Source of the DNA: Octopus vulgaris
Lineage: Eukaryota
Direction: 5' to 3'
Length of the DNA: 26,525 nucleotides
NCBI GenBank assembly: GCA_951406725.2
Contig: CATOCA020000039.1
Coordinates: 1 to 26,525 of the forward strand
Shown: positions 1 through 25,262 of the stretch, piece by piece
Layout: every line of letters begins with the position of its first letter
How positions within the stretch are numbered: the stretch's first letter is position 1
The notes under the pieces: generated by a model
Databases searched by the model: none
Told to the model about the DNA's origin: nothing
What the model saw: only the letters and a program-made list of their open reading frames with translations
Translations under genes and position numbers: made by a program

Positions 1-479
1 ACTCAATTTGTACTCCTTGGAACGAAGACGAGAGAGATATGCAGTGATATACATATGGAAAATCCTGGAGGGACTAGCACCAAATTTTGGAATTGAGAGC
101 TGTTCCAATCCCCGTACAGGACGTCACTGTGTGGTGCAAAAGGTCCCGTCTTCCACATCCAGGGTAAGGAGCAGATACTGTAATAGCCTGGGGTTCAGGG
201 GCCCTCAGCTTTTCAACAAACTGCCAAGAAAACTAAGAGATCTACATGATGCGGATGTGGACATTTTCAAAAAACATCTAGACAAGCTGCTTTCCGGGAT
301 CCCAGATGAACCCACTGCAAGGTACGAAGGTAACCTAAGGGCAGCAGCTACAAACTCTCTCTTAGATCAGTGGCCAGCCACGGCAAACTGGACTTAGAGA
401 GGGTAGCAACAAGGGCGGTGCCCCAGCATGGCCTCAGCCGGATGGCTGAAACAAGTAAAAGAGTAAAAGAGTAAAAGAG

Positions 480-480
<1 letters not shown>
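1..480 (+). mobile_element. 3' end of CR1/L2-group LINE, family B (runs off window start)
   Basis: ORF2 C-terminus ([20 protein letters not shown]...FKKHLDKLL) homologous to the other RT ORFs here; 3'UTR motif GGTGCCCCAGCATGGCC; tail AAGTAAAA(GAGTAAAA)2GAGT joined to (TA)n. Confidence 0.92.
2..397 (+). CDS. C-terminal part of LINE ORF2 (post-RT region), partial
   Basis: Open frame [13 protein letters not shown]...WPATANWT*, collinear with ORF2 C-termini at 5800-6189 and 12599-13030. Confidence 0.85.
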
Positions 481-7257
<6,777 letters not shown>

Positions 7258-7279
7258 GACATACTATATATACATAATT

Positions 7280-8120
7280 ATGCCTTAAGATTATAAATAA
7301 CGATTTTTATACACTTTAATATATATAGTAATATTGTTAACATATTTTCAGATACTCTATCTCCTAATTAGCCTTAAGATTAAATTAAATAACGTTTAAT
7401 ATTACCCACACTCTAATATAATATTAATATTGCTAATATATTTTCAGATACTCTATCTCCTAATTAGCCTTAAGATTAAATTAAATAACGTTTTTTTTTT
7501 ACCCACAAACTTTAATATTGTTAATATTTTTTTTTTTTTTAAATACTCTATCTTCTAATTAGCCTTAATATCTTCTTGTCTTCTCTCGAACATAGTTAGA
7601 TAGATAAACAAATAGACAGATCATCCAGCATGTCCAGAGCATGGAGACCTGACGAACTAGATTAATATTCGTACGAGCCTGGAAGTGTGCCGACGGAGAT
7701 AGCCCTAGCGAAGTGATTGCGGCTGCGCTGAAGATTAAAGGCTACAATAACGACAGCGGCTCAGATGGATAATAGAGACGGGAATATCGTGCGCTCATAT
7801 GCGGTTATATATATATTCATATATGCCATCTTCTAATTAGCGGGGCAAAGATGGCAAAATAACGATATATTATAAGTCTAATTACGCCTCTAATATAATA
7901 TTAATATTGCTAATATATTTTCAGATACTCTATCTCCTAATTAGCCTTAAGATTAAACAACGTTTTTATCCACACTCTAATATAATATTAATATTGCTAA
8001 TACATTTTCAGATACTCTATCCCCTAATTAGCCTTAAGATTAAATAATGTTTTTATACAACCATTATTGTTAATATTTCTTTTTCAAGTACTCTATCTTC
8101 TAATTAGCCTTAATATCTTC
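7280..8120 (+). repeat. ~80-97-bp AT-rich tandem monomers in the LINE 5' region, two blocks of ~3
   Basis: Recurring TTTTCAGATACTCTATCTCCTAATTAGCCTTAAGATT; GCCTTAA anchors near 7282, 7371, 7467, 7562, 7944, 8030, 8107. Confidence 0.9.
7630..7860 (+). pseudogene. Degraded duplicate of the ORF1 N-terminus (Myb/SANT-like region)
   Basis: ATGTCCAGAGCATGGAGACCTGACGAACTAG... parallels 8174 onward; several indels. Confidence 0.8.
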
Positions 8121-8173
8121 CTGTCTCTCTCGAACATAATTAGATAGATAAACGGATAGACGAATTATCCAGC

Positions 8174-9135
8174 ATGTCCAGAGCATGGAGACGTGACGAG
8201 CTGGATTTATTCGTACGAGCATGGGAGTGCGCCGGCGGAGATAGCCTAGCGAGGTGATTGCGGCTGTGCTGAAGAGCAGAGGCTACAAGAGGACGGCGGC
8301 TCAGATGGAGCGAAAGAGACATGGAGACGTGACGAGCTGGATTTATTAGATAGATTGCGGCTGTGCTGAGGAATTCGTGCGCTCATATGCGCTTGTACGG
8401 TCGCACATTGGCGCACTTGATGCCATCTTTGAGAACGAGTGGGGCAAAGATGGCAAGAATGGAGACGATGAAAGAAGTCACCCCTACCTGGTGGACGCCC
8501 GGGAAGGTTTTGAATGAGAAACCTGCCCGGGAAGTTTACTTTCCAGGTGCAAGTTCTCCAACCGGCAGCAAGGGCCATGGAGACGGAGAACCCGGTGAAG
8601 AGGTAGAGGGAGGAAGAAGAACTAAAAGAAGGACTGGAAGAGCTAAAGGAAAAGAAAAAGCTCAAGCAGGACCAAAGAGTGAAACAACCAGAAATAGAAG
8701 TGGAACCGCAAAGGATGGAACCAAACAGCGCACACGGGTGTGTGCATGTTCTACCTGAGAGGTTCCTGCTGGCATGGAAAGGAAGGTGCAGGCTGCTGCT
8801 TTGCACATCGGGGACCCTGCCACAGAGACACGAGGCAGATGGACAAACCATCAACACAAAGAAAAGGGATGGACCACGCACCACCTGCCCCAAAGCGGAG
8901 GTACGCAGATGTTGTGCGCGCCACAAACAGCCAACATGATGTTGTCGAAAGAGCAGCTGCTGAGCAACAATCTTTTTTGTGCATGGCACAAAAGATTGTA
9001 CAGCAGCTGACCTGGCTTCATCAAACCCAAGCCCGCAGGTGGGACTACCCACTATATACCAGACCACCACAGCAAACAGACACAGGATGGACACCGCCGG
9101 CAACAACGTACACCTCACCTCGATACTCCTACTGA
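8174..9135 (+). pseudogene. LINE ORF1 (Myb/SANT-like + charged linker + CCCH finger), disrupted
   Basis: Manual translation MSRAWRRDELDLFVRAWECAGGDS/SEVIAAVLKSRGYKRTAAQMERKR; frameshifts at ~8245 and ~8740; ~50-bp self-derived insertion at ~8320-8368; CMFYLRGSCWHGKEGAGCCFAH at 8743-8808. Confidence 0.8.
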
Positions 9136-12081
9136 ACATCAGAGGACTGCAAACACTCAGTAACAGGACAAAGATCCCGTTCCTGAGAGACTTTGTTGCA
9201 TGCAATCAAGCCTTATGCATAGCACTTACAGAAACGCACCTGAAACCGGACATAGCAGATGCGGAGTTACACATACCACAGTATGCTGTACTACGGACCG
9301 ACAGGAAAGAAAGGAGTCATGGAGGTGTTGCTATGTACATCCGTGAGGACCTCACACCCCAGGTCCTCTTGTCATACTCAAACTCGGTGTGTGACACACT
9401 AATTGTACATATTAGGCAACTTGATGTAGTTGTGTGTGCTACATATCGCCCTCCAGATGCCCCAAGCCATGTGGGCAAGTTTGAAGACTGCCTTATAAAA
9501 ATAGAAGAAATTCTAACCACATTAGAACAACACATAGGTGTGCTTCTTATGGGAGACTTCAATCTGCCCAATGTCAGATGGCCCGAGGGCCTTTCTCTCC
9601 CAGGAATGACAAGATGTGAACGAGGACAGGCGAGGTCCCTCCTGAACCTCATCAACACCCTGTACATGGAGCAGGTAATACTCCAACCAACCAGGGCAGG
9701 TAACACACTGGATCTCTGCTTCACAAATGACATGGATCTCATCCATAATGTGAAAGTGACACCGACACTACTCTCGGATCACAACATGATAGAGCTGACC
9801 ATGTACGGGCCAAAAGAGAGCACGGACATGCAGCCTACAAGAAACCCTCAAAATCTTTCCAGCTTGAACTACCATAAGGCAAACTGGAAACAAATTGAGA
9901 AAGAGATCCTCAAACAAAACTGGCCTAAATGTCTCTCCTCGCCAGACATCGACGTGAAACTTCAACAATTCATGTCTGTAATGCAAGCCATATGCTACAA
10001 ATGTGTCCCAGAGAGAAAGGCCACTGTACACAAGAACAAAATCCCCAGAGAGAGGAAAATTTTAATGAGACGGCGTACGAAATTTTCAAATCGCCTAAAC
10101 AAACAGATTGAAAGCAGTGAAAAGTCCCGCCTAAAAATAAAACTGTTGGAAATCGAAAAATGTCTGCAACTCTCCCATGAAAAAGAAAGAGCAGACAAAG
10201 AAGCCTGGGCTATAGAAAACATAAAATCTAACCCCAGAGCTTTCTACAGGTATGCCAAAGAAACAGCTACAGTGCACTGTAGAATAGGGCCACTCCTCGA
10301 AAAGGATGGCACACTTACAGGAAAACCAATGAGGGTAAGTGAAATACTGAATGAGCAATTCAAGAGTGTTTTCACTCCACCCCTTGGGCATCTCCAAATC
10401 ACCAATCCAACTGACTTTTTACCACTGCAGATATAAAATCAGAGGCGGCGACGATAGATTACATCGATATAAAGGAAGACGATGTAACCAAGGCTATAGA
10501 TGAAATGAAAACAGACTCAGCTACTGGCCCCGATGGATTCCCGGCAATCCTCCTAAAAGCATGTAAGAGAGTCCTAGCAAGACCACTGCAGTTCCTCTTT
10601 CAGAGCTTCCTTGCAGCTGGCAAACTTCCAGGAAAACTGAAGGAAGGTAAAATATGCCCCATTCATAAAGGAGGTAGCAGAGCGGAAGCCAAGAACTATA
10701 GACCTATCTCTCTGACCTCACACATCAGCAAGGTCATGGAACGAATAGTCAGAAGGAAGCTGATCACCTTCCTTGAAGAGAATGACTTGCTGCCCGACAC
10801 CCAACATGGTTTCCGACCAGGGAGAAGCTGTTTAACTCAGCTCCTACAACACTATGACTGGGTGCTGAAACGGCTGCTCAACCACTCAAATGTGGAAGTG
10901 ATATATCTCGACTTTGCAAAGGCCTTTGATAAAGTCGATCATGGAATGATATGTCACAAACTGCGTGATCTCAACATAGTTGGAAAACTGGGAGAATGGC
11001 TTCATGACTTTCTGAAGGATAGAAGTCAGGTGGTAGTAGCCAATGGGGCCACCTCCATTAACACACAAATAGTGAGCGGTGTTCCGCAGGGCACTGTTCT
11101 GGGACCACTACTGTTCATAATGGCCCTCTCAGACATGCCCTCAGCCACGCAGAGAGCCACGATCACAAGTTATGCAGATGATACAAAAGTTTCACAGGCA
11201 ATACAGAACCCTGAGGACACTAAACACCTGCAATGTGAGCTGGACGAAATATACAAGTGGGCTGAAAAGAATAGCATGCAGTTCAATGCTGGAAAGTTTC
11301 AAGCTTTATACTATCAGCATGCAAAACTGAATGCAATACCCAATGAATACACTGGACCCGGAGGGATTGCAATCCCAGAGGCACAATCAGTGCGTGACCT
11401 GGGTATTCACATGAGTGATGACGCGACCTTTCATGTACATGTTGCTAAACTGACAATGAAATGTAGACGGCTGGCTGGATGGATTCTTAGAACCTTTAGA
11501 ACAAGAGAACAAGAAACCATGATGGTCCTCTGGAAGACACTTGTCCTAAGCCACTTTGACTATTGCTCTCAGCTATGGTCACCATCCAGTGTCAAGTTGA
11601 TCACAGAACTTGAGGCGATCCAACGAAGCTACACAAAGAAGATAGCCTCTATGCAGAATGTAAGCTACTGGGAAAGACTCAAGAGATTAAAATTATATTC
11701 CCTGGAGCGTAGGCGGGAAAGATATGCCATAATATACATCTGGAAGATCCTGGAGGGAAGTGTCCTGAACTTTGGCATCGAGAGTTACGCAAATGCCAGA
11801 ACTGGGCGCCACTGCGTGGTGCCTAGGACTCCAAACCTGCCATCAAGATGTAGGACAAGATCTGTGATAGCCTGGGCTTCCGAGGCCCACAGCTCTTCAA
11901 TATCCTCCCGAAGAACCTGAGAGACCTGCATGGGGTGGATACAGATGTCTTTAAAATGAAGCTGGATCTCTTCCTGTCAGGTGTCCCAGATGAACCAACT
12001 TCACGGCAGGAGGGGCAGATGAGGGCAGCTGCATCGAACTCTCTCATGCACCAAATAGCAGTTGCTAGAAAGCCTCCATGA
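8964..12081 (+). pseudogene. LINE ORF2, APE endonuclease + reverse transcriptase, with two 1-bp frameshifts (~10420, ~11860)
   Basis: APE motifs LNIRGL, ALTETHL, YRPP, MGDFN, LDL, SDH; RT motifs [19 protein letters not shown]. Confidence 0.95.
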
Positions 12082-12162
12082 AGTGAAACCAAGTAGCAAC
12101 ACCAAATGGCATGGTGCCCCAGCATGGCCACAGCTCATAAGCTGAAACTAGAATCAATCAAT

Positions 12163-12508
<346 letters not shown>

Positions 12509-12598
12509 TTGATTGATTGATTGATTGATTCCAGTTTCAGCTCATGAGCTGTGGCCATGCTGGGGCACCGCCATTTGGTGTTGCTACTTGGTTTCACT

Positions 12599-15500
12599 TC
12601 ATGGAGGCTTTCTAGCAACTGCTATTTGGTGCATGAGAGAGTTCGATGCAGCTGCCCTCATCTGCCCCTCCTGCCGTGAAGTTGGTTCATCTGGGACACC
12701 TGACAGGAAGAGATCCAGCTCCATTTTAAAGACATCTGTATTCACCCCATGCAGGTCTCTCAGGTTCTTCGGGAGGATATTGAAGAGCTGTGGGCCTCGG
12801 AAGCCCAGGCTATCACAGAATCTTGTCCTACATCTTGATGGCAGGTTTGGAGTCCTAGGCACCACGCAGTGGCGCCCAGTTCTGGCATTTGCGTAACTCT
12901 CGATGCCAAAGTTCAGGACACTTCCCTCCAGGATCTTCCAGATGTATATTATGGCATATCTTTCCCGCCTACGCTCCAGGGAATATAATTTTAATCTCTT
13001 GAGTCTTTCCCAGTAGCTTACATTCTGCATAGAGGCTATCTTCTTGTGTAGCTTCGTTGGATCGCCTCAAGTTCTGTGATCAACTTGACACTGGATGGTG
13101 ACCATAGCTGAGAGCAATAGTCAAAGTGGCTTAGGACAAGTGTCTTCCAGAGGACCATCATGGTTTCTTGTTCTCTTGTTCTAAAGGTTCTAAGAATCCA
13201 TCCAGCCAGCCGTCTGCATTTCACTGTCAGTTTAGCAACATGTACATGAAAGGTCGCGTCATCACTCATGTGAATACCCAGGTCACGCACTGATTGTGCC
13301 TCTGGGATTGCAATCCCTCCGGGTCCAGTGTATTCATTGGGTATTGCATTCAGTTTTGCATGCTGATAGTATAAAGCTTGAAACTTTCCAGCATTGAACT
13401 GCATGCTATTCTTTTCAGCCCACTTGTATATTTCGTCCAGCTCATATTGCAGGTGCCTAGTGTCCTCAGGGTTCTGTATTGCCTGTGAAACTTTTGTATC
13501 ATCTGCATAACTTGTGATCGTGGATCTCCGCGTGGCTGAGGGCATGTCTGAGAGGGCCATTATGAACAGTAGTGGTCCCAAAACAGTGCCCTGTGGAACA
13601 CCGCTCACTATTTGCGTGCTAATGGAAGTGGCCCCATTGGCTACTACCACCTGACTTCTATTCTTCAGAAAGTCGTGAAGCCATTCTCCTAGTTTTCCAA
13701 CTATGCCAAGATCACGCAGTTTGTGACATATCATTCCATGATCGACTTTATCGAAGGCCTTTGCGAAGTCGAGATATATGACTTCCACATTTGAGTGGTT
13801 GAGCAGTTGTTTCAGCACCCAGTCATAGTGCTGCAGGAGCTGAGTTAAGCAGCTTCTTCCTGGTCGGAAACCATGTTGGGTGTCAGGCAGCAAGTCATTT
13901 TCTTCAAGGAAGGTGATTAGTTTCCTTCTGACTATTCGTTCCATGACCTTGCTGATGTGTGAGGTCAGAGAGATAGGTCTGTAGTTCTTGGCCTCCGCTC
14001 TGCTACCTCCTTTATGAATAGGGCATATTTTACCTTCCTTCAGTTTTCTTGGAAGTTTGCCAGCTGCAAGGAAGCTCTGAAAGAGGAACTGCAGTGGTCT
14101 TGCTAAGACTCTCTTACATACTTTTAGGAGGATTGCCGGGAATCCATCGGGGCCAATAGCTGAGTCTATTTTCATTTCATCTATAGCCTTTATTACATCG
14201 TCTTCCTTTATATCGATGTAATTTATCGTCGCCGCCTCTGATTCTATATCTGCAGTGGTAAAGAAGTCAGTTGGATTGCTGATTTGGAAATGCCCAAGGG
14301 GTGGAGTGAAAACACTCTTGAATTGTTCATTCAGTATTTCACTTACCCTCATTGGTTTTCCTGTGAGTGTGCCATCCTTTTCAAGGAGTGGCCCTATCCT
14401 ACAGTGCACCGTAGCTGTTTCTTTGGCATACCTGTAGAAAGCTCTGGGGTTAGTTTTTATGTTGTCTATAGCCCAGGCTTCTTTGTCTGCTCTTTCCTTC
14501 TCATGGGAGAGTTGCAGACAATTTTCAATTTCCAACAGTTTTATTTTCAGGCGGGACTTTTCACTGCTTTCAATTTGTTTGTTTAGGCGATTTGAGATTT
14601 TTGTGCGCCGTCTCATTAAAATTTTCTCTCTCTGGGGATTTTGTTCTTGTGTACAGTGGCCTTTCTCTCTGGGACACATTTGTAGCATATGGCTTGCATT
14701 ACAGACATGAATTGTTGAAGTATCATGTCGATGTCCGGCGAGGAGAGACATTCAGGCCAGTTTTGTTTGAGGATCTCTTTCTCAATTTGTTTCCAGTTTG
14801 CCTTATTGAAGTTCAAGCTGGAAAGATTCTGAGGGTTTCTTGTAGGCTGCATGTCCGTGCTCTCTTTTGGCCCGTACATGGTCAGCTCTACCATGTTGTG
14901 ATCCGAGAGTAGTGTCGGTGTCACTTTCACATTATGGATGAGATCCATATTATTTGTGAAGCAGAGATCCAGTGTGTTACCTGCTCTGGTTGGTTGCAGT
15001 ATTACTTGCTCCATGTACAGGGTGTTGGTGAGGTTCAGGAGGGACCTCGCCTGTCCTCGTTCACATCTTGTCATTCCTGGGAGAGAAAGGCCCTCGGGCC
15101 ATCTGACATTCGGTAGATTGAAGTCTCCCATGAGAAGTACACTTATGTGTTGTTCTAATGTGGTTAGAACTTCTTCTATTTTTAAAAGGCAGTCCTCAAA
15201 CTTGCCCATATGACTTGGGGCATCTGGAGGGCGATATGTAGCACACACAACTACATCAAGTTGCCTTATGTGTACAATTAGTGTGTCACACACCGAGTTT
15301 GAGTATGACAAAAGGACCTGGGGTGTGAGGTCCCCACGGATGTACATAGCAACTCCTCCATGACTCCTTTCTTTCCTGTCGGTCCGTAGTACAACATACT
15401 GTGGTATGTGTAATTCCGCATCTGCTATGTCCGGTTTCAGATGCGTTTCTGTGAGTGCTATGCATAAGGCTTGATTGCATGCGACAAAGTCTCTCAGGAA

Positions 15501-15716
15501 CGGGACTTTTGTCCTGTTACTGTGTGTTAGTAGTCCTCTGATGTTCAGTAGGAGCATCGAGGTGAGGTGTATGCTGTTGCCGGTGGTGTCCACCCTGGGT
15601 CCATCTGCTGTGGCGGTCTTGTGAACCGTGGGCAGTTCCATCTGCGAGCCTGAGCCTGATGGAGCCAGGTTAGCTGCTGTACAATCTTTTGTGCCATGCA
15701 CAAAAAAGATTCCTGC
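12599..15716 (-). pseudogene. LINE ORF2, APE + RT (~1040 codons when repaired), with two 1-bp frameshifts (~14625, ~13040)
   Basis: ORFs 14616-15701, 13036-14751 and 12599-13030 join into one protein collinear with copy 1. Confidence 0.95.
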
Positions 15717-16435
15717 TCAGCAGCTGCCCTTTCAACAACACGTTGGTGGTTTGTGGTACGCACCACATCTGCGTACCTCCGTTTTGGGGCAGGTGATGCC
15801 TGGTCCATCCCATTTCCTTTCGGTGGTTGGTTTCTGTGGCAGGGTCCCGGATGTGCAAAGCGGCAGCCTGCACCTTCCTCTCCATGCCGGCAGGCACCTT
15901 TCAGGTAGAACCTACATACCCGTGTGCGCTGCTTGTTTCCATCCTTTTTGGCATATGGACAGTTAGGTTTGCCTCATCCCTGGCTGCCTTGCCCCTTGGC
16001 TTTACCTCTGAGTTTTAGCTTCAGTTTTTCCTCTTTTTTGGCCTCTTCATCTCCATGTCCATGGCTTTTGGTGCCGGTAGGAGCATCCGTACCTGGGTTC
16101 ACCTCCCGGGCAGGCCTCTCGCTGGAGTTTTCTTCCTGGGCGTCCACCAGGTGGGGGTGACCCTCCTCATCTGCGCCCGCGTCTCCATCCTTGCCATCTT
16201 TACTTTGTTCGCGTTTTTCGCTGTTAAAAATGGCATCCAGTGTGTTTATGTGCGATCTGACAAGTGCGTATGAGCGTACGAACTCTTGCCTCTTCCGCTC
16301 TATTTGTGCTGACGTCCTTTTGAATCCGTTGTTCTTCAGCGCAGCCGTAATTATATTACTTGGACTTTCTCCGTCAGCGCATTGCCATCCTTGCAGGAAC
16401 CACGCCAGTTCATCACGTTTCCAAGCTCTGGACAT
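15545..16435 (-). CDS. LINE ORF1, 296 codons with one in-frame TGA (15974-15976): Myb/SANT-like domain, charged region, CCCH zinc finger
   Basis: ORFs 15974-16435 and 15545-15808 share a frame; the gap translates GSQG*GKPNCPYAKKDGNKQRTRVCRFYLKGACRHGEEGAGCRFAHPGPCHRNQPPKGNGMDQ; N-terminus WKRDELAWFLQGW...IITAALKNNGFKRTSAQIERKRQEFVRSY. Confidence 0.8.
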
Positions 16436-16447
16436 TCTTGATATATA

Positions 16448-17004
16448 ATCTATCTATCTAATTATGTTAAGTTATATTAATCCAATAGTAGGGGGTAATA
16501 GAGAAAGAGAGCGTCTATGTACTTAAGGAGAGATTGGGAGCCAAGAGAAGAGAGCAAGAGAGAAGAGGAAGGGGAGAGATATTTTGTCTATCTATCTATC
16601 TATCTAATTATATTAAGTTATATTAATCCAATAGTGCAATAGGGGGTAGGGGGGTAATAGAGAAAGAGAGCGTCCATGCACTTAAGGAGAGATTGGGGAG
16701 CCAAGAGAAGAGAGCAAGAGAGAAGAGGAAGAGGAGATACTGAGTGCTGAAGGAAGATAGAGAAAGCCTCTATGCCCTCAGAGAGAGATTGAGAGCTGAG
16801 AGAGGAGAGCTGAGACAGACAGAGAAGCGCAAGGGAGAGAACCGAAGAGACAGACAGAATTCTAAACGAAGTTGTTGGGCCAAGGAGGGGCGCAGGGAGA
16901 GAACTGAAGAGACAGACAGAGAAGCGCAAGGGAGGGAACTAAAGAGACAGACAGAGAAGGGCAAGGGAGAGAACTGAAGAGACAGACAGAATTCTAAACG
17001 AAGC
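16448..17004 (-). repeat. Duplicated GA/CT-rich units upstream of ORF1 (probable 5'UTR)
   Basis: ~16448-16580 repeated at ~16592-16740; GAGACAGACAGAGAAGCGCAAGGGAGAGAAC units and AGAATTCTAAACGAAG at ~16856 and ~16988. Confidence 0.8.
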
Positions 17005-17199
17005 TATTGGGACATACACATGTATACACACACACACACATACACACATGTACACACGTGTGCACATGCACATATATAGACAAGAGTAACAAGTGAGTAT
17101 ATAAAGAAACAAAAATAATAATGAAACATATATAAACATATATTACAAAACATATATAAACATATATTACAAAAGTAATAATAGTGAGAAATTATAAGA

Positions 17200-18526: not shown

Positions 18527-18739
18527 ACACACACATAGGAGCACAAACACACACACATATATATATACATATATACGACGGTCCTCTTTCAGTTTCCGTC
18601 TACCAAATCCACTCACAAGGCTTTGGTCGGCCTGAGGCTATAGTAGATGGCATTTGCCCAAGATGCCACGCAGTGGGACTGAACCCAGGACCATCTGGTT
18701 GGTAAGTAAGCTACTTACCACACAGCCACTCCTACGCCT
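18527..18739 (-). mobile_element. tRNA-derived SINE, probably 3'-truncated, resembling octopus SINEs
   Basis: Minus strand begins GGCGTAGGAG, A box TGGCTGTGTGG (18718-18728), B box GGTTCAGTCCC (18675-18685), body ...GGATTTGGTAGACGGAAACTGAAAGA, then TA/TG repeat; family assignment is from memory. Confidence 0.85.
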
Positions 18740-18796
18740 ATACATATACATATATAATACACACACACATACATACACACACATACACACACACAC

Positions 18797-19187: not shown

Positions 19188-21906
19188 ACGGCCTCTTCAG
19201 AGAATTAAATTAAATTTGTTATAATAGTGAAAAATATTATATAATCATATACATATAAATATAAAAATATAAAAAAGTAAAATATAAAAACTTATACATC
19301 ATAATGCTACACTTGTATAATATAATACATATTTGTACAAAAAGGAAGGTAACCAGAACAAAATAAAACAAAATATATAACAGTGTATATATAATATTAA
19401 TAAGTACCGATATCATACATATTTAGCTAATAGTTTTTTTTATAAAAAAAGGGGGCTAACACATATGGAGATGAAAAATAATAATAATTAAATCCGTGGT
19501 ACAGTTCATAAAATTCTAAAGCTATAAAAGTTAATAAAAATTACTATTAATAATAATAATAATAATAAAAATAATAATAGTAATAATAATAAAAAATAAT
19601 AAAAATAGATACAGTTAAGTTATCACCAAGTCCATCCTTCCAAGATCGAAATAACTATGAGTTAAGAAATGCTGACCACTAGGTAAAGAAAATTTAGATT
19701 AATTCGATTGGCTATTGGTTTGAAATTTAAATCACAAAAGAAAATTATACGGTTGGTTAGTCAGGGAACGCCAATATTCACACACGCATCTACAGATCAA
19801 TCGCACATACACACATAGTTATATGTATATACATACACTTGTACATATACATAATCATAAGCAACAACTAACACTTAGATAAACAAATAGGGAAGCAACC
19901 ATGCTAACACTAAGTCCTTCAAAATTATAACTGAGCCTCAATAACAAAAAAAGAACCATCCATGCATTCTATAAAATATTTAATTAAGATATAAATGTAT
20001 TTTTAAATATCAGTATGTTACTAATTCAGATAATTATTTCATGGGTAACTTAAAATTTGTAACACCGGTTTGTTGCAGAGTAAACATACGGTTGTTAGGT
20101 TTATCGTAAGTTTGTTATGATTTAAAGTACGCTAAATTATAAAATATAAAATATAAAATATATTAATTTAGATATTATAAATAAGTCACTTATTAACTTA
20201 ATAAATATAGTGCCAAAATATACCAGTTTAGGCAATAAAAAATAGAGGGGAAGTATTAATGTAAACGCTTATGAGAACATCACAGAAATTTTAAATAAAT
20301 TTTATATTATAAAGACTTAATATGAAAAGAGATAAAATAAATAAAAAGGAATAAATACGAAGGAATAAATACGGTTATACACATAATTATAAGTACAAAC
20401 TAGTATATATGTATTCCTATATTATTAAAATAAATAAAAATAAATGATAGATATGTATGTATAAAACTACACCAGTATAAGTAAATAAGTAAAGAATAAA
20501 TAGGTAACAAATTAAATGACTTGATATGTATGTAAACATCCACACTTAAATAGGCAAATAAATATTAAGTGTGGATGTTTATACATATCAAGTCATTTAA
20601 TTTGTTACCTATTTATTCTTTACTTATTTACTTATACTGGTGTAGTTTTATACATACATATCTATCATTTATTTTTATTTATTTTAATAATATAGGAATA
20701 CATATATACTAGTTTGTATATAATTATGTGTATAACCGTATTTATTCCTTCGTATTTATTCCTTTTTATTTATTTTATCTCTTTTCATATTAAGTCTTTA
20801 TAATATAAAATTTATTTAAAATTTCTGTGATGTTCTCATAAGCGTTTACATTAATACTTCCCCTCTATTTTTATTGCCTAAACTGGTATATTTTGGCACT
20901 ATATTTATTAAGTTAATAAGTGACTTATTTATAATATCTAAATTAATATATTTTATATTTTATATTTTATAATTTAGCGTACTTTAAATCATAACAAACT
21001 TACGATAAACCTAACAACCGTATGTTTACTCTGCAACAAACATTGTTACAAATTTTAAGTTACCCATGAAATAATTATCTGAATTAGTAACATACTGATA
21101 TTTAAAAATACATTTATATCTTAATTAAATATTTTATAGAATGCATGGATGGTTCTTTTTTTGTTATTGAGGCTCAGTTATAATTTTGAAGGACTTAGTG
21201 TTAGCATGGTTGCTTCCCTATTTGTTTATCTAAGTGTTAGTTGTTGCTATGATATATGTATATGTACAAGTGTATGTATATACATATAACTATGTGTGTA
21301 TGTGCGATTGATCTGTAGATAATGTGTAATATTGGCGTTCCCTATAATAACCGTATAATTTTCTTTTGTGATTTAAATTTCAAACCAATATGCCAATCGA
21401 ATAATCTAAATTTTCTTTACCTAGTGGTCAGCATTTCTTAACTCATAGTTATTTCGATCTTGGATGACTTGGTGATAATAATGTATCTATTTTTATTATT
21501 TTTTTATTATTATTACTATTATTATTTTTATTATTATTATTATTATTAATAGTAATTTTTATTAACTTTTATAACTTTTAAATTTTATGAACTGTACCAC
21601 GGATTTAATTATTATTATTTTTCATCTCCATATGTGTTAGCCCCCTTTTTTTATAAAAAAAACTATTAGCTAAATATGTATGATATCGGTACTATTAATA
21701 TTATATATACACTGTTATATATTTTGTTTTATTTTGTTCTGGTTACCTTCCTTTTGTACAAATATGTATTATATTATACAAGTGTAACATTATGATGTAT
21801 AAGTTTTTATATTTTACTTTTTTATATTTTTATATTTATATGTATATGATTATATAATATTTTTCACTATTATAACAAATTTAATTTAATTCTCTGAAGA
21901 GGCCGT
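19188..21906. repeat. 2.7-kb palindrome: arms 19188-20549 and 20565-21906, 15-nt spacer
   Basis: ACGGCCTCTTCAGAGAATT...AAACATCCACACTTAA / ATAGGCAAATAAATA / TTAAGTGTGGATGTTT...AATTCTCTGAAGAGGCCGT. Confidence 0.97.
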
Positions 21907-22200: not shown

Positions 22201-22867
<667 letters not shown>

Positions 22868-25098
22868 ACTCTTTTACTTGTTTCAGCCATCCGGCTGAGG
22901 CCATGCTGGGGCACCGCCCTTGTTGCTACCCTCTCTAAGTCCAGTTTGCCGTAGCTGGCCACTGATCTAAGAGAGAGTTTGTAGTTGCTGCCCTTAGGTT
23001 ACCTTCGTACCTTGCAGTGGGTTCATCTGGGATCCCGGAAAGCAGCTTGTCTAGATGTTTTTTGAAAATGTCCACATCCGCATCATGTAGATCTCTTAGT
23101 TTTCTTGGCAGTTTGTTGAAAAGCTGAGGGCCCCTGAACCCCAGGCTATTACAGTATCTGCTCCTTACCCTGGATGTGGAAGACGGGACCTTTGGCACCA
23201 CACAGTGACGTCCTGTACGGGGATTGGAACAGCTCTCAATTCCAAAATTTGGTGCTAGTCCCTCCAGGATTGATTTCGATACTGGGATTTCGATCCCTCC
23301 TGGACCAGTATAGTTGTGTGTGTATATGTGTTTACAGCTTGATATTGTAAGGCTGAAATTTACCAGCATTACAAATTGCTGTTGTTGTCTTCAGCCCATT
23401 TGTATATGGCATCCAGATCTTGTTGTAAAGGTCAGCATCAGCTGGGTTTTTGATTGCCTGTGCTACCTTTGTGTCATCAGCATGGCTAGTGAGGGATGTT
23501 GTTTGTGCTACCAAGGGCATGTCAGAAGGCACAAAAACAGCAAGGGTCCCAAGACTGTGCCCTGTGGCCTTCAGCACTATTGGTGTCTTTCCCGAGAGGG
23601 CTCCATTGGCTGCAACCATCTGGCTTCTGTCCTTCAGGAAGTCATGTATCCACTCACTAGCTTTTCCCATATTGCCTTCCCAGTCTGAGTAATTTGTGAC
23701 ATATCATCCTTGGTCGACTTTGTCAAGGCCTTCTTAAAGTCGAGATATACCACATCCACCTGTGAGCAGTCAAGTGATTGTTTCAGTACCCAGTCGTAGT
23801 GTTGTAACAGCTGCGTAAGGCAGTAACTTCCTGGGCAGAAAGCCATCACTGTGTGTCAGTGAGACGGTTAGTTTCTTCGAGGAAGACGTGATCAGTTTTT
23901 CTGATGATTCGTTCCATGACCTTACTTATGTGTGACGTCAGGGAGACTGGCCTGTAGTTTTTGGCCTCTGCTCTACTCCCTCCTTTGTGGATGGGGCATA
24001 TGGTGCCTTCATGACGCCCTGGGCAGTTTACCGTTGGCAAGGAACACTTTGAAGAGCTTCTAACAGTGGTCCCGCTGAGCATGCCTGCATGTTTTGGAGA
24101 ACTGCTGGAGTCCCATCTGGTCCAGCAGCTGAGTTTTATTCTCATTTCTTCTATGGCAGATATTACATCCCTCTCTGTTATGTCTATGTAATTCAGTGGT
24201 TGTTTGTTTGGTTTGTGGTGTTTGGCATCCAAAGAAAACTTCTGGGTTTTGTGGTTTGCATGGCACTTTGGGGGATGTGAATAAAGCTTTTATACTGTTC
24301 CTTTAGTATTTCACTTATCCCTTGGGGGTCCCTCCAGTTAGAGAGCCCTTTTTATCCAAAGAGTGGGCCAATCTTGCAGTGTACCGAGGTGGTTTCTTTC
24401 TACAAATTTAAAGAAGGCTTTGGGGTTTGTTTTAATATTCTCTATGGCCCTGGCTTCTCTCTCTGCCCTCTACTTCTCATAGGAAAGGTTTGAGTGCAGT
24501 TTCCGTTTTCAAAAAGTTTCAGGTGGAGTCCTCATTGTTTCTCTTGCATTGATTGCTTCAGAGAGCTTCATCTTCACTGTAAGTATTTTCCTGTCTCTGG
24601 GAACATTTGTTCCTTGCCCATGTTTCTCTGAGATTGAGCTGCTGGCATATGTTCTGTATTGTTGTCATGAAATGTTGGAAATGTGTGTTGGTGTCTTGAC
24701 CTTCAGTGATGAGTCTCCAGTCATGTTTTCGGATCTCTTCGTTGATCTTCTTCCAGTTTGCCTTATGGAAGTTTAGACTGGATAGGCCTGTGGTATTTTC
24801 TAATGGCTGCGTCTCAACTAACTCTCTCATACTATATCATTACCTCCCCTAACAGTTGTGAGTCAGAGAGAATTGTTGGTGTTACCATTATGTTGTGGAT
24901 GAGCATCAGGTTGCTTGTGAAACAGAAGACCAAGACATTCTCACCTCTTGTTGTAAAAGCACTGCTTGCTCCATCAGAAAAACTTGCGTGTGAGAGCCAA
25001 CAAGGGCTCTGTCTGTCTCTGTTCAAGTGATGTCATTCCAGGGAGAATGTATCTAATGCATTTGACTTTTCGGAAGGTTAGTCTCCCAGCAGCAGTAG
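22868..25098 (-). mobile_element. 5'-truncated, internally deleted, indel-rich LINE with a family B 3' end
   Basis: 22868-23270 is the reverse complement of ~62-464 with ~3 substitutions; RT remnants (NYRPVSLTSH, VYLDFKKA, HADDT) and APE C-terminal remnants (LLLGD, ILSDS); (TA)n on both sides. Confidence 0.92.

Positions 25099-25262
<164 letters not shown>

Follow-up and report, generated by a model that had tools for sequence, protein, structure and literature searches.

The closest described systems are the 3′ tails of two groups of LINEs. In the L2 clade, the ORF2 protein (ORF2p) of ZfL2 was reported to bind its own 3′ stem-loop through its EN-RT region, the stem being recognized in a general manner and the loop in a specific one, and four L2 LINEs with about 60% RT identity were found to carry nearly the same stem-loop (PMC4176376). 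Efficient retrotransposition of UnaL2 needs a hinge that a bulge and a mismatch form within the stem, and reverse transcription begins on a short repeat just downstream (PMC1636434). As for the CR1 group, amniote CR1 elements end in a 3′ hairpin and an octamer repeat, which are conserved across subfamilies and were suggested to be the RT recognition site (PMC4316615), and the oyster element CR1-14_CGi, later reclassified as CR1-Zenon (PMC11481361, supplement), presents stem-loops with compensatory changes that are common to BivaV-SINE2 and BivaCORE-SINE1 (PMC4824008).

The stretch of DNA analysed here in full (the window) spans 26,525 nucleotides of Octopus vulgaris (contig CATOCA020000039.1); this AT-rich animal DNA includes long (TA)n tracts as well as five LINE copies, which belong to three families denoted A, B and C. 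Copy B1 (1-480, plus strand) retains the 3′ end of ORF2 (1-397), truncated by the window start and closed by a stop codon at 395-397. Copy C (4132-6264, plus strand) is a 5′-truncated LINE that encodes an RT and has (TA)n on both sides; its ORF2 contains one frameshift close to the 3′ end. Copy A1 (8133-12160, plus strand) presents a degenerate ORF1, a frameshifted ORF2 with endonuclease and RT, and a 3′ tail, and its 5′ UTR may start as far back as approximately 7277, where we infer the boundary. Copy A2 (12510-16468, minus strand), made of ORF1 pieces, endonuclease and RT, lies tail-to-tail with A1 across a single (TA)n tract, and copy B2 (22869-25098, minus strand), flanked by (TA)n on both sides, comprises the last 391 nt of the element and, beyond a gap of about 350 nt, an indel-rich RT/endonuclease stretch (23282-25098). 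Since these last 391 nt of B2 are 99.2% identical to B1, and A1 and A2 are 99.3% identical over their last ~800 nt, the five copies represent three independent observations. The A1/A2 couple forms a large inverted pair (8133-16468), whose arms are 62-70% identical at the 5′ end, then 95%, and finally reach the 99.3% of the last ~800 nt, a gradient that suggests conversion between the arms or a 5′ exchange between subfamilies.

As judged from their sequence, the five copies are Octopus CR1-clade LINEs. Pfam matches to Exo_endo_phos_2 (E 1.8e-12) and RVT_1 (E 6.8e-31) were obtained for A1, and likewise for A2, and an RT was recognized in C. The order within ORF2, with the AP endonuclease followed by the RT, is that of CR1-clade LINEs, as are the 3′ ends, which consist of a short tandem repeat (8-nt units in B and C, a 4-nt unit in A) with no poly(A). 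The best named homologue among the 120 matches listed was a protein from Argonauta hians, with 57% identity. A marker peptide of these ORFs matched 20 rows, all of them from Octopus, in the RT alignment published by Martelossi et al. 2023 (PMC10294476), and the 12 rows for which the class was checked were all assigned by these authors to the CR1 clade of the Jockey superfamily. Compared by eye, the 128 displayed RT residues of O.sinensis_14 are identical to those of C, and the 128 of O.sinensis_21 to those of A1, while A2 differs from O.sinensis_104 by two residues and a two-residue gap over the displayed stretch; family B is linked to CR1 only via in-frame pieces located upstream of B2, which closely match O.sinensis_114. 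The CR1 placement is thus one by visual identity to published clusters that their authors' tree assigned to this clade (PMC10294476), and it indicates that the elements are Octopus CR1 LINEs with RTs already catalogued. For these octopus clusters, the covered parts of PMC10294476 give an RT alignment and a clade, with no analysis of the 3′ UTR. An earlier note on this DNA, made from the letters alone, had taken the L2 clade as its model; membership in that clade was rejected, since the table in which the matching clusters carry the label CR1 has separate entries for L2 and L2-2 (PMC10294476). The nearer precedents are therefore the amniote CR1 hairpin with its octamer and the oyster CR1-14_CGi.

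What the five copies have in common at their 3′ ends is a tail containing an invariant 17-mer, which occurs exactly at 417-433 and 6208-6224 and 12113-12129 on the plus strand, and at 12553-12569 and 22899-22915 on the minus strand, compared with 0.03 occurrences expected from shuffled sequences. No sixth copy was found in the window at up to three mismatches. The earlier note had described this motif as identical in all five copies and as located in the 3′ UTR of all three families, and both statements are correct: the tail lies beyond the ORF2 stop in every copy, with gaps from the stop to the 17-mer of 19, 18, 31, 29 and 19 nt. It had also placed the start of the motif at 414, which must be amended, as the 17-mer begins at 417 and positions 414-416 are part of a lower stem that had been overlooked. 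Downstream, the distance from the 17-mer to an AAAC motif is 15 nt in all five copies. A degenerate pattern combining the second hairpin described below with AAAC matched the same five sites and no others in the window (0.02 expected), and a covariance model of the family tails, as the note had proposed to build, retrieved only the five LINE copies when run on the whole window.

The surroundings of the 17-mer are far less constant. Each family has its own 15-25 nt after the stop codon, its own loop in the second hairpin and its own unit of the terminal repeat, in agreement with the claim that the neighbouring UTR differs. Over the final ~430 columns of the alignment, no three-way identical stretch is longer than these 17 nt, and the second longest, of 13 nt, lies within the coding sequence. 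At fourfold-degenerate sites of the RT region, C matches A2 at 83 of 147 and A1 at 73 of 139; in the last 62 codons, B1 matches A2 at 7 of 22 such sites and C at 5 of 18. The three-way identity at third positions is 0.31, a rate at which the probability of a 17-nt three-way run is about 7e-8, and it is 3e-3 even at a rate of 0.6. A coding explanation was discarded, as the motif lies past the ORF2 stop in all copies. Taken with the divergence of silent sites, the invariance of the 17-mer indicates that the motif is under a constraint that coding does not explain. Contamination by bacterial or archaeal DNA was rejected as well: the four matches found in 596 Gb of such sequence, none accompanied by the second hairpin or by LINE sequence, are attributable to chance.

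The tail is predicted to fold into two adjacent hairpins. The first consists of a 4-bp lower stem (5 bp in C), a G.G mismatch, a 4-bp upper stem and a CCCA loop; in the lower stem, the four bases immediately 5′ of the 17-mer are paired with its final three bases and the base that follows it. In B1, this hairpin spans 413-434 (plus strand), with the lower stem at 413-416/431-434, the mismatch at 417/430, the upper stem at 418-421/426-429 and the loop at 422-425. The 4-bp fold of the 17-mer on itself that had been suggested from the letters corresponds only to the upper half of hairpin 1, within which there is no covariation; the hairpin as a whole is longer, and has more in its favour, than that description. 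Hairpin 1 is closed by G.U in family B, by C-G in family C and by U-A in family A, a compensatory change across all three that the earlier note had overlooked, and its innermost lower pair is either C-G or U.G. Hairpin 2 adjoins hairpin 1 with no spacer, and its stem counts 5 bp in family A, 5-6 bp in family B and 4 bp in family C. In B1 (435-448), it has 5 bp and a GGAU loop, and a sixth pair, 434-449, could form if hairpin 1 gave up its closing pair; hairpin 2 is followed by AAAC (449-452) and by 3.5 copies of the family-B 8-nt repeat (454-481), which runs into (TA)n. Both hairpins and AAAC are identical to B1 in the B2 tail (22880-22919, minus strand). The C tail (6203-6243, plus strand) comprises hairpin 1 at 6203-6226, which takes the extra base for its 5-bp lower stem and leaves hairpin 2 (6227-6238) with 4 bp, AAAC at 6240-6243 and an 8-nt repeat extending to approximately 6266. 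In A2 (12534-12573, minus strand), hairpin 1 is found at 12552-12573, hairpin 2 at 12538-12551 and AAAC at 12534-12537. The A1 tail (12107-12148, plus strand) maintains an intact hairpin 2 (12131-12144), AAAC (12145-12148) and then a 4-nt repeat, and a 2-nt insertion (12111-12112) breaks its modelled hairpin 1, which we read as decay after insertion of the element. The same order, hairpin 2, AAAC, a family-specific short repeat and (TA)n, is thus kept throughout. The loop of hairpin 2 varies (GGAU in B, UUCG in C, CAUG or CAUA in A), and both the second hairpins and the AAAC motifs quoted in the earlier note are right in all five copies, including the cUUCGg tetraloop of C (6230-6235).

For B1, B2, C and A2, folding with three lengths of context gave the two-hairpin fold as both the minimum-energy and the centroid structure, and in these copies the seven inner pairs of hairpin 1 have pair probabilities of 0.83-1.0. 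The folding z-scores are modest (-1.75, -2.14 and -1.56, with -0.50 for A1). In the five-row alignment, 63 of 64 cells pair (the missing one arises because the B2 row ended short), compared with 22-46% when the partners are slid. The covariation score exceeded that of 499 of 500 shuffles, a figure to be read considering that the rows are related, and the number of pairs changed on both sides, which is two, was not above the shuffles (225/500). Altogether, the stems show two compensatory pairs, two one-sided changes and one pair broken in C. Hairpin 2 contributes one compensatory pair (C-G vs. U-A), one one-sided change (A-U to G.U) and the broken pair (C.A), so that its description as a covarying hairpin is borne out for one pair and not for the other two. 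An exact permutation over the three families yielded P = 0.056, and the probability that randomly placed stem changes would retain as many pairs is about 0.005 for both A vs. B and A vs. C; the favourable P values err on the optimistic side, because they use a structure that was itself derived from these sequences. Six of the eight pairs of hairpin 1 are invariant, including the four upper ones, and since these four never vary, their support comes from the energy model alone. The covariation is thin, with three independent families and two compensatory pairs, and the two-hairpin structure can be considered plausible and consistent, albeit statistically unproven. A fourth related octopus RT type exists outside the window (O.sinensis_49, O.sinensis_71, O.sinensis_98 and O.bimaculoides_1, in supplement 23 of PMC10294476), and it would supply another independent tail for covariation testing.

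By analogy with the systems introduced above, the tail is probably a 3′ recognition signal of the stringent type for the ORF2p of a lineage of Octopus CR1-clade LINEs. In stringent-type elements, the 3′ UTR contains a conserved stem-loop placed just before the terminal repeat, and this is the arrangement found here. Briefly, in the proposed mechanism the tail would act in cis in the element RNA, with hairpins 1 and 2 forming back to back past the ORF2 stop. ORF2p would read hairpin 1 by both sequence and shape, probably through the basic EN-RT linker, in which an ILMRRR stretch is kept in A1, C and their relatives and is a candidate for the tail-binding site, and the G.G mismatch would serve as a hinge. 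Hairpin 2, whose shape is kept while its letters are free, would hold the 15-nt distance between the 17-mer and AAAC, as a structural spacer or as a family-specific element, and this spacing would bring the short terminal repeat to the nicked target, the site at which reverse transcription would be primed. The earlier note had put forward a two-hairpin RT signal; position, conservation, folding and limited covariation agree with it, and binding by ORF2p rests on analogy. Such a tail would be a new example of a mechanism already known in related elements, the mechanism itself not being new, and it allows a natural test, within the CR1 clade, of the model of stem-general, loop-specific recognition, for which the experiments cited above were on L2 elements (PMC4176376).

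Part of the same evidence could be read otherwise. The 17-mer might be recognized as a single strand, by ORF2p or by a host RNA-binding or 3′-end-processing factor, with only hairpin 2, or neither hairpin, being of structural importance. All 17 bases are invariant, beyond what pairing alone needs, six of the eight pairs of hairpin 1 never vary and the z-scores are modest, as would be expected in that case. Nevertheless, the two flanking positions that do vary still pair in the three families, giving three different closing pairs, and the two-hairpin fold is the predicted minimum in four of the five copies, and for this we consider recognition of a single strand unlikely. It could also be argued that the identity derives not from selection but from a recent exchange of 3′ ends between families, by template switching or gene conversion. 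The inverted pairs are indeed most alike at their 3′ ends (the 62-70%, 95% and 99.3% of A1/A2), from which it follows that homogenisation may act locally within a family; the families, in contrast, are unlike one another on either side of the 17-mer, so that exchange would have had to transfer a patch of ~20 nt to the same place twice, and it would yield no compensatory pairs. An origin of the identity in exchange is consequently very improbable.

Slightly less credible still is a role of the motif as DNA, or its capture from a host small RNA, for which we found no supporting point. Against both, the motif is present in the window solely at LINE 3′ ends and always in the orientation of the element, no tRNA gene was found in the window and no Rfam family matched 380-478, save for one chance match (E 2.8). 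For the whole window, none of the 150 Rfam matches listed, out of 180, overlaps a tail, and those listed are sub-threshold matches to miRNA families on TA-rich or palindromic DNA. A recognition signal read by ORF2p is the interpretation that we retain.

When this putative signal is set beside the known tails, amniote CR1 is similar in kind: it belongs to the same clade, its conserved 3′ hairpin is followed by a short tandem repeat (8 nt, as in families B and C) and its copies are heavily truncated at the 5′ end (PMC4316615). The octopus tails differ, as far as the published description goes, in having two adjacent hairpins and a repeat unit that varies by family (8, 8 and 4 nt). The oyster CR1-14_CGi is likewise a mollusc LINE of the CR1 group whose 3′ stem-loops show compensatory changes (PMC4824008), although it belongs to another clade and host and, in its case, a sharing of the tail with SINEs is documented; the likeness is drawn from the published description. 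UnaL2, ZfL2-1 and ZfL2-2 resemble the octopus elements in their mismatch-interrupted stem, conserved loop, terminal repeat located just downstream and nearly identical tails across diverged families; in contrast, they are L2 elements with a single stem-loop and a GGAUA loop, in place of the invariant CCCA of octopus (PMC4176376, PMC1636434). A homology between this GGAUA loop and the GGAU loop of hairpin 2 in family B was considered and rejected, because the latter is absent from A and C and the likeness is thus probably due to chance. The tail is not described in the covered parts of PMC4758252, PMC5804259, PMC4824008, PMC5786205, PMC9115989, PMC11481361, PMC3747384, PMC4176376, PMC1636434, PMC10294476, PMC4316615, PMC4120745, PMC4640811, PMC3531059 and PMC13282606. 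A search of the full-text literature for the 17-mer and its reverse complement gave no occurrence in the 26 papers listed out of 27, which contained only an 11-nt piece, in unrelated primers.

An abundant octopus SINE may end in a similar tail, and the earlier note had seen in these LINEs its possible autonomous partners. The window contains a single SINE-like element (18576-18740, minus strand), with A-box- and B-box-like motifs and located between microsatellites, which gave no match to the tail model. The tail motif was also absent from the searchable supplements of Nishihara 2016 and from those of Martelossi 2024 (eight files) and Bonar 2026 (one file), which constitute a weak test. Searches for SINE copies through spurious read-through peptides, weak tests as well, gave no candidate in one case and 22 in another, none of them scoring, and two peptide matches were discarded as translations of unrelated tandem repeats with only partial likeness. 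The literature searched, with most subscription papers and the Repbase and Dfam records outside its scope, describes no octopus SINE-LINE pair. CR1-group partners of mollusc SINEs are established in bivalves (PMC11481361), which makes the proposal of SINE partners in octopus plausible. According to PMC13282606, the O. vulgaris genome is 12.9% LINEs and 11.6% SINEs; 13 CR1 families were recently active, with 787 insertions, and 893 of the 900 recently active SINE families are unclassified. With a precise model of the 40-nt tail, SINEs could be matched directly to a CR1 partner, and the 3′ ends of CR1 elements could be located.

A further feature of these elements is their association with (TA)n. 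B1 at its 3′ end and C at its 5′ end share the tract at 480-4131, that at 12161-12509 lies between the 3′ ends of A1 and A2, and others adjoin LINE ends at 6265-7276, 22201-22868 and 25099-25262. At all five 3′ ends, the terminal repeat gives way directly to (TA)n, which also adjoins C and B2 at their truncated 5′ ends. Given that (TA)n makes up 55% of the non-LINE DNA in the window, five out of five would occur by chance with a probability of about 0.05; the tracts may have grown after insertion. The pattern hints at microsatellite targeting by this CR1 lineage, and is to be taken as a lead only. In the covered parts of PMC4640811, target-specific non-LTR elements are reported mainly in the RLE-type, Tx1 and R1 groups, and the literature searched, within the scope given above, contains no description of a TA-targeting CR1. 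It could tentatively be envisaged, as a possibility more than an expectation, that the tail is made of two parts, an invariant hairpin 1 common to all families, which would permit cross-mobilisation and provide a handle that the major octopus SINEs could borrow, and a family-specific hairpin 2 with its terminal repeat, and that the same lineage prefers insertion into (TA)n. If so, the two-part tail and this preference would be the engine behind part of the octopus SINE load and of the repeat clusters nested in microsatellites. A palindromic target would permit the arrangement of A1 and A2, whose 3′ ends point towards each other from the two sides of a single (TA)n tract.

Several minor observations concern the remainder of the window. 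The ORF1 of family A (15602-16453, minus strand, and 8170-8960, plus strand) is broken in both copies. It shows a match to a CCCH zinc finger (Pfam E 1.8e-4, below the cut-off) and, at its N-terminus, a weak, sub-threshold Myb/SANT-like match (Pfam E 0.063), with atlas scores of 0.76-0.84 that are leads only; CCCH, Myb and SANT are not mentioned in the covered parts of a survey of ORF1 in the Jockey superfamily (PMC4120745). The described ORF1 types against which CR1-clade membership was considered are RRM, PHD, esterase and zinc knuckle. Upstream of A1 there are AT-rich repeats of 87-96 nt (7277-8130), and upstream of A2 pyrimidine-rich repeats (16470-17010), the two sets being mutually unrelated. 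The start of the A1 ORF1 region is duplicated in tandem (7540-7770 and 8086-8310); the two copies are 88% identical over 229 nt, and the upstream one is shortened. The stretch upstream in B2 (about 23271-25098, minus strand) has 40 small indels in ~1270 columns and a short microhomology at the join of the ~350-nt gap, and it may reflect long-read error, an old copy or a chimera. Finally, an AT-rich palindrome of 2.7 kb (19188-21906), with arms that are 97% identical, 11 mismatches and 18 gap openings, may be a foldback element or an assembly artefact.
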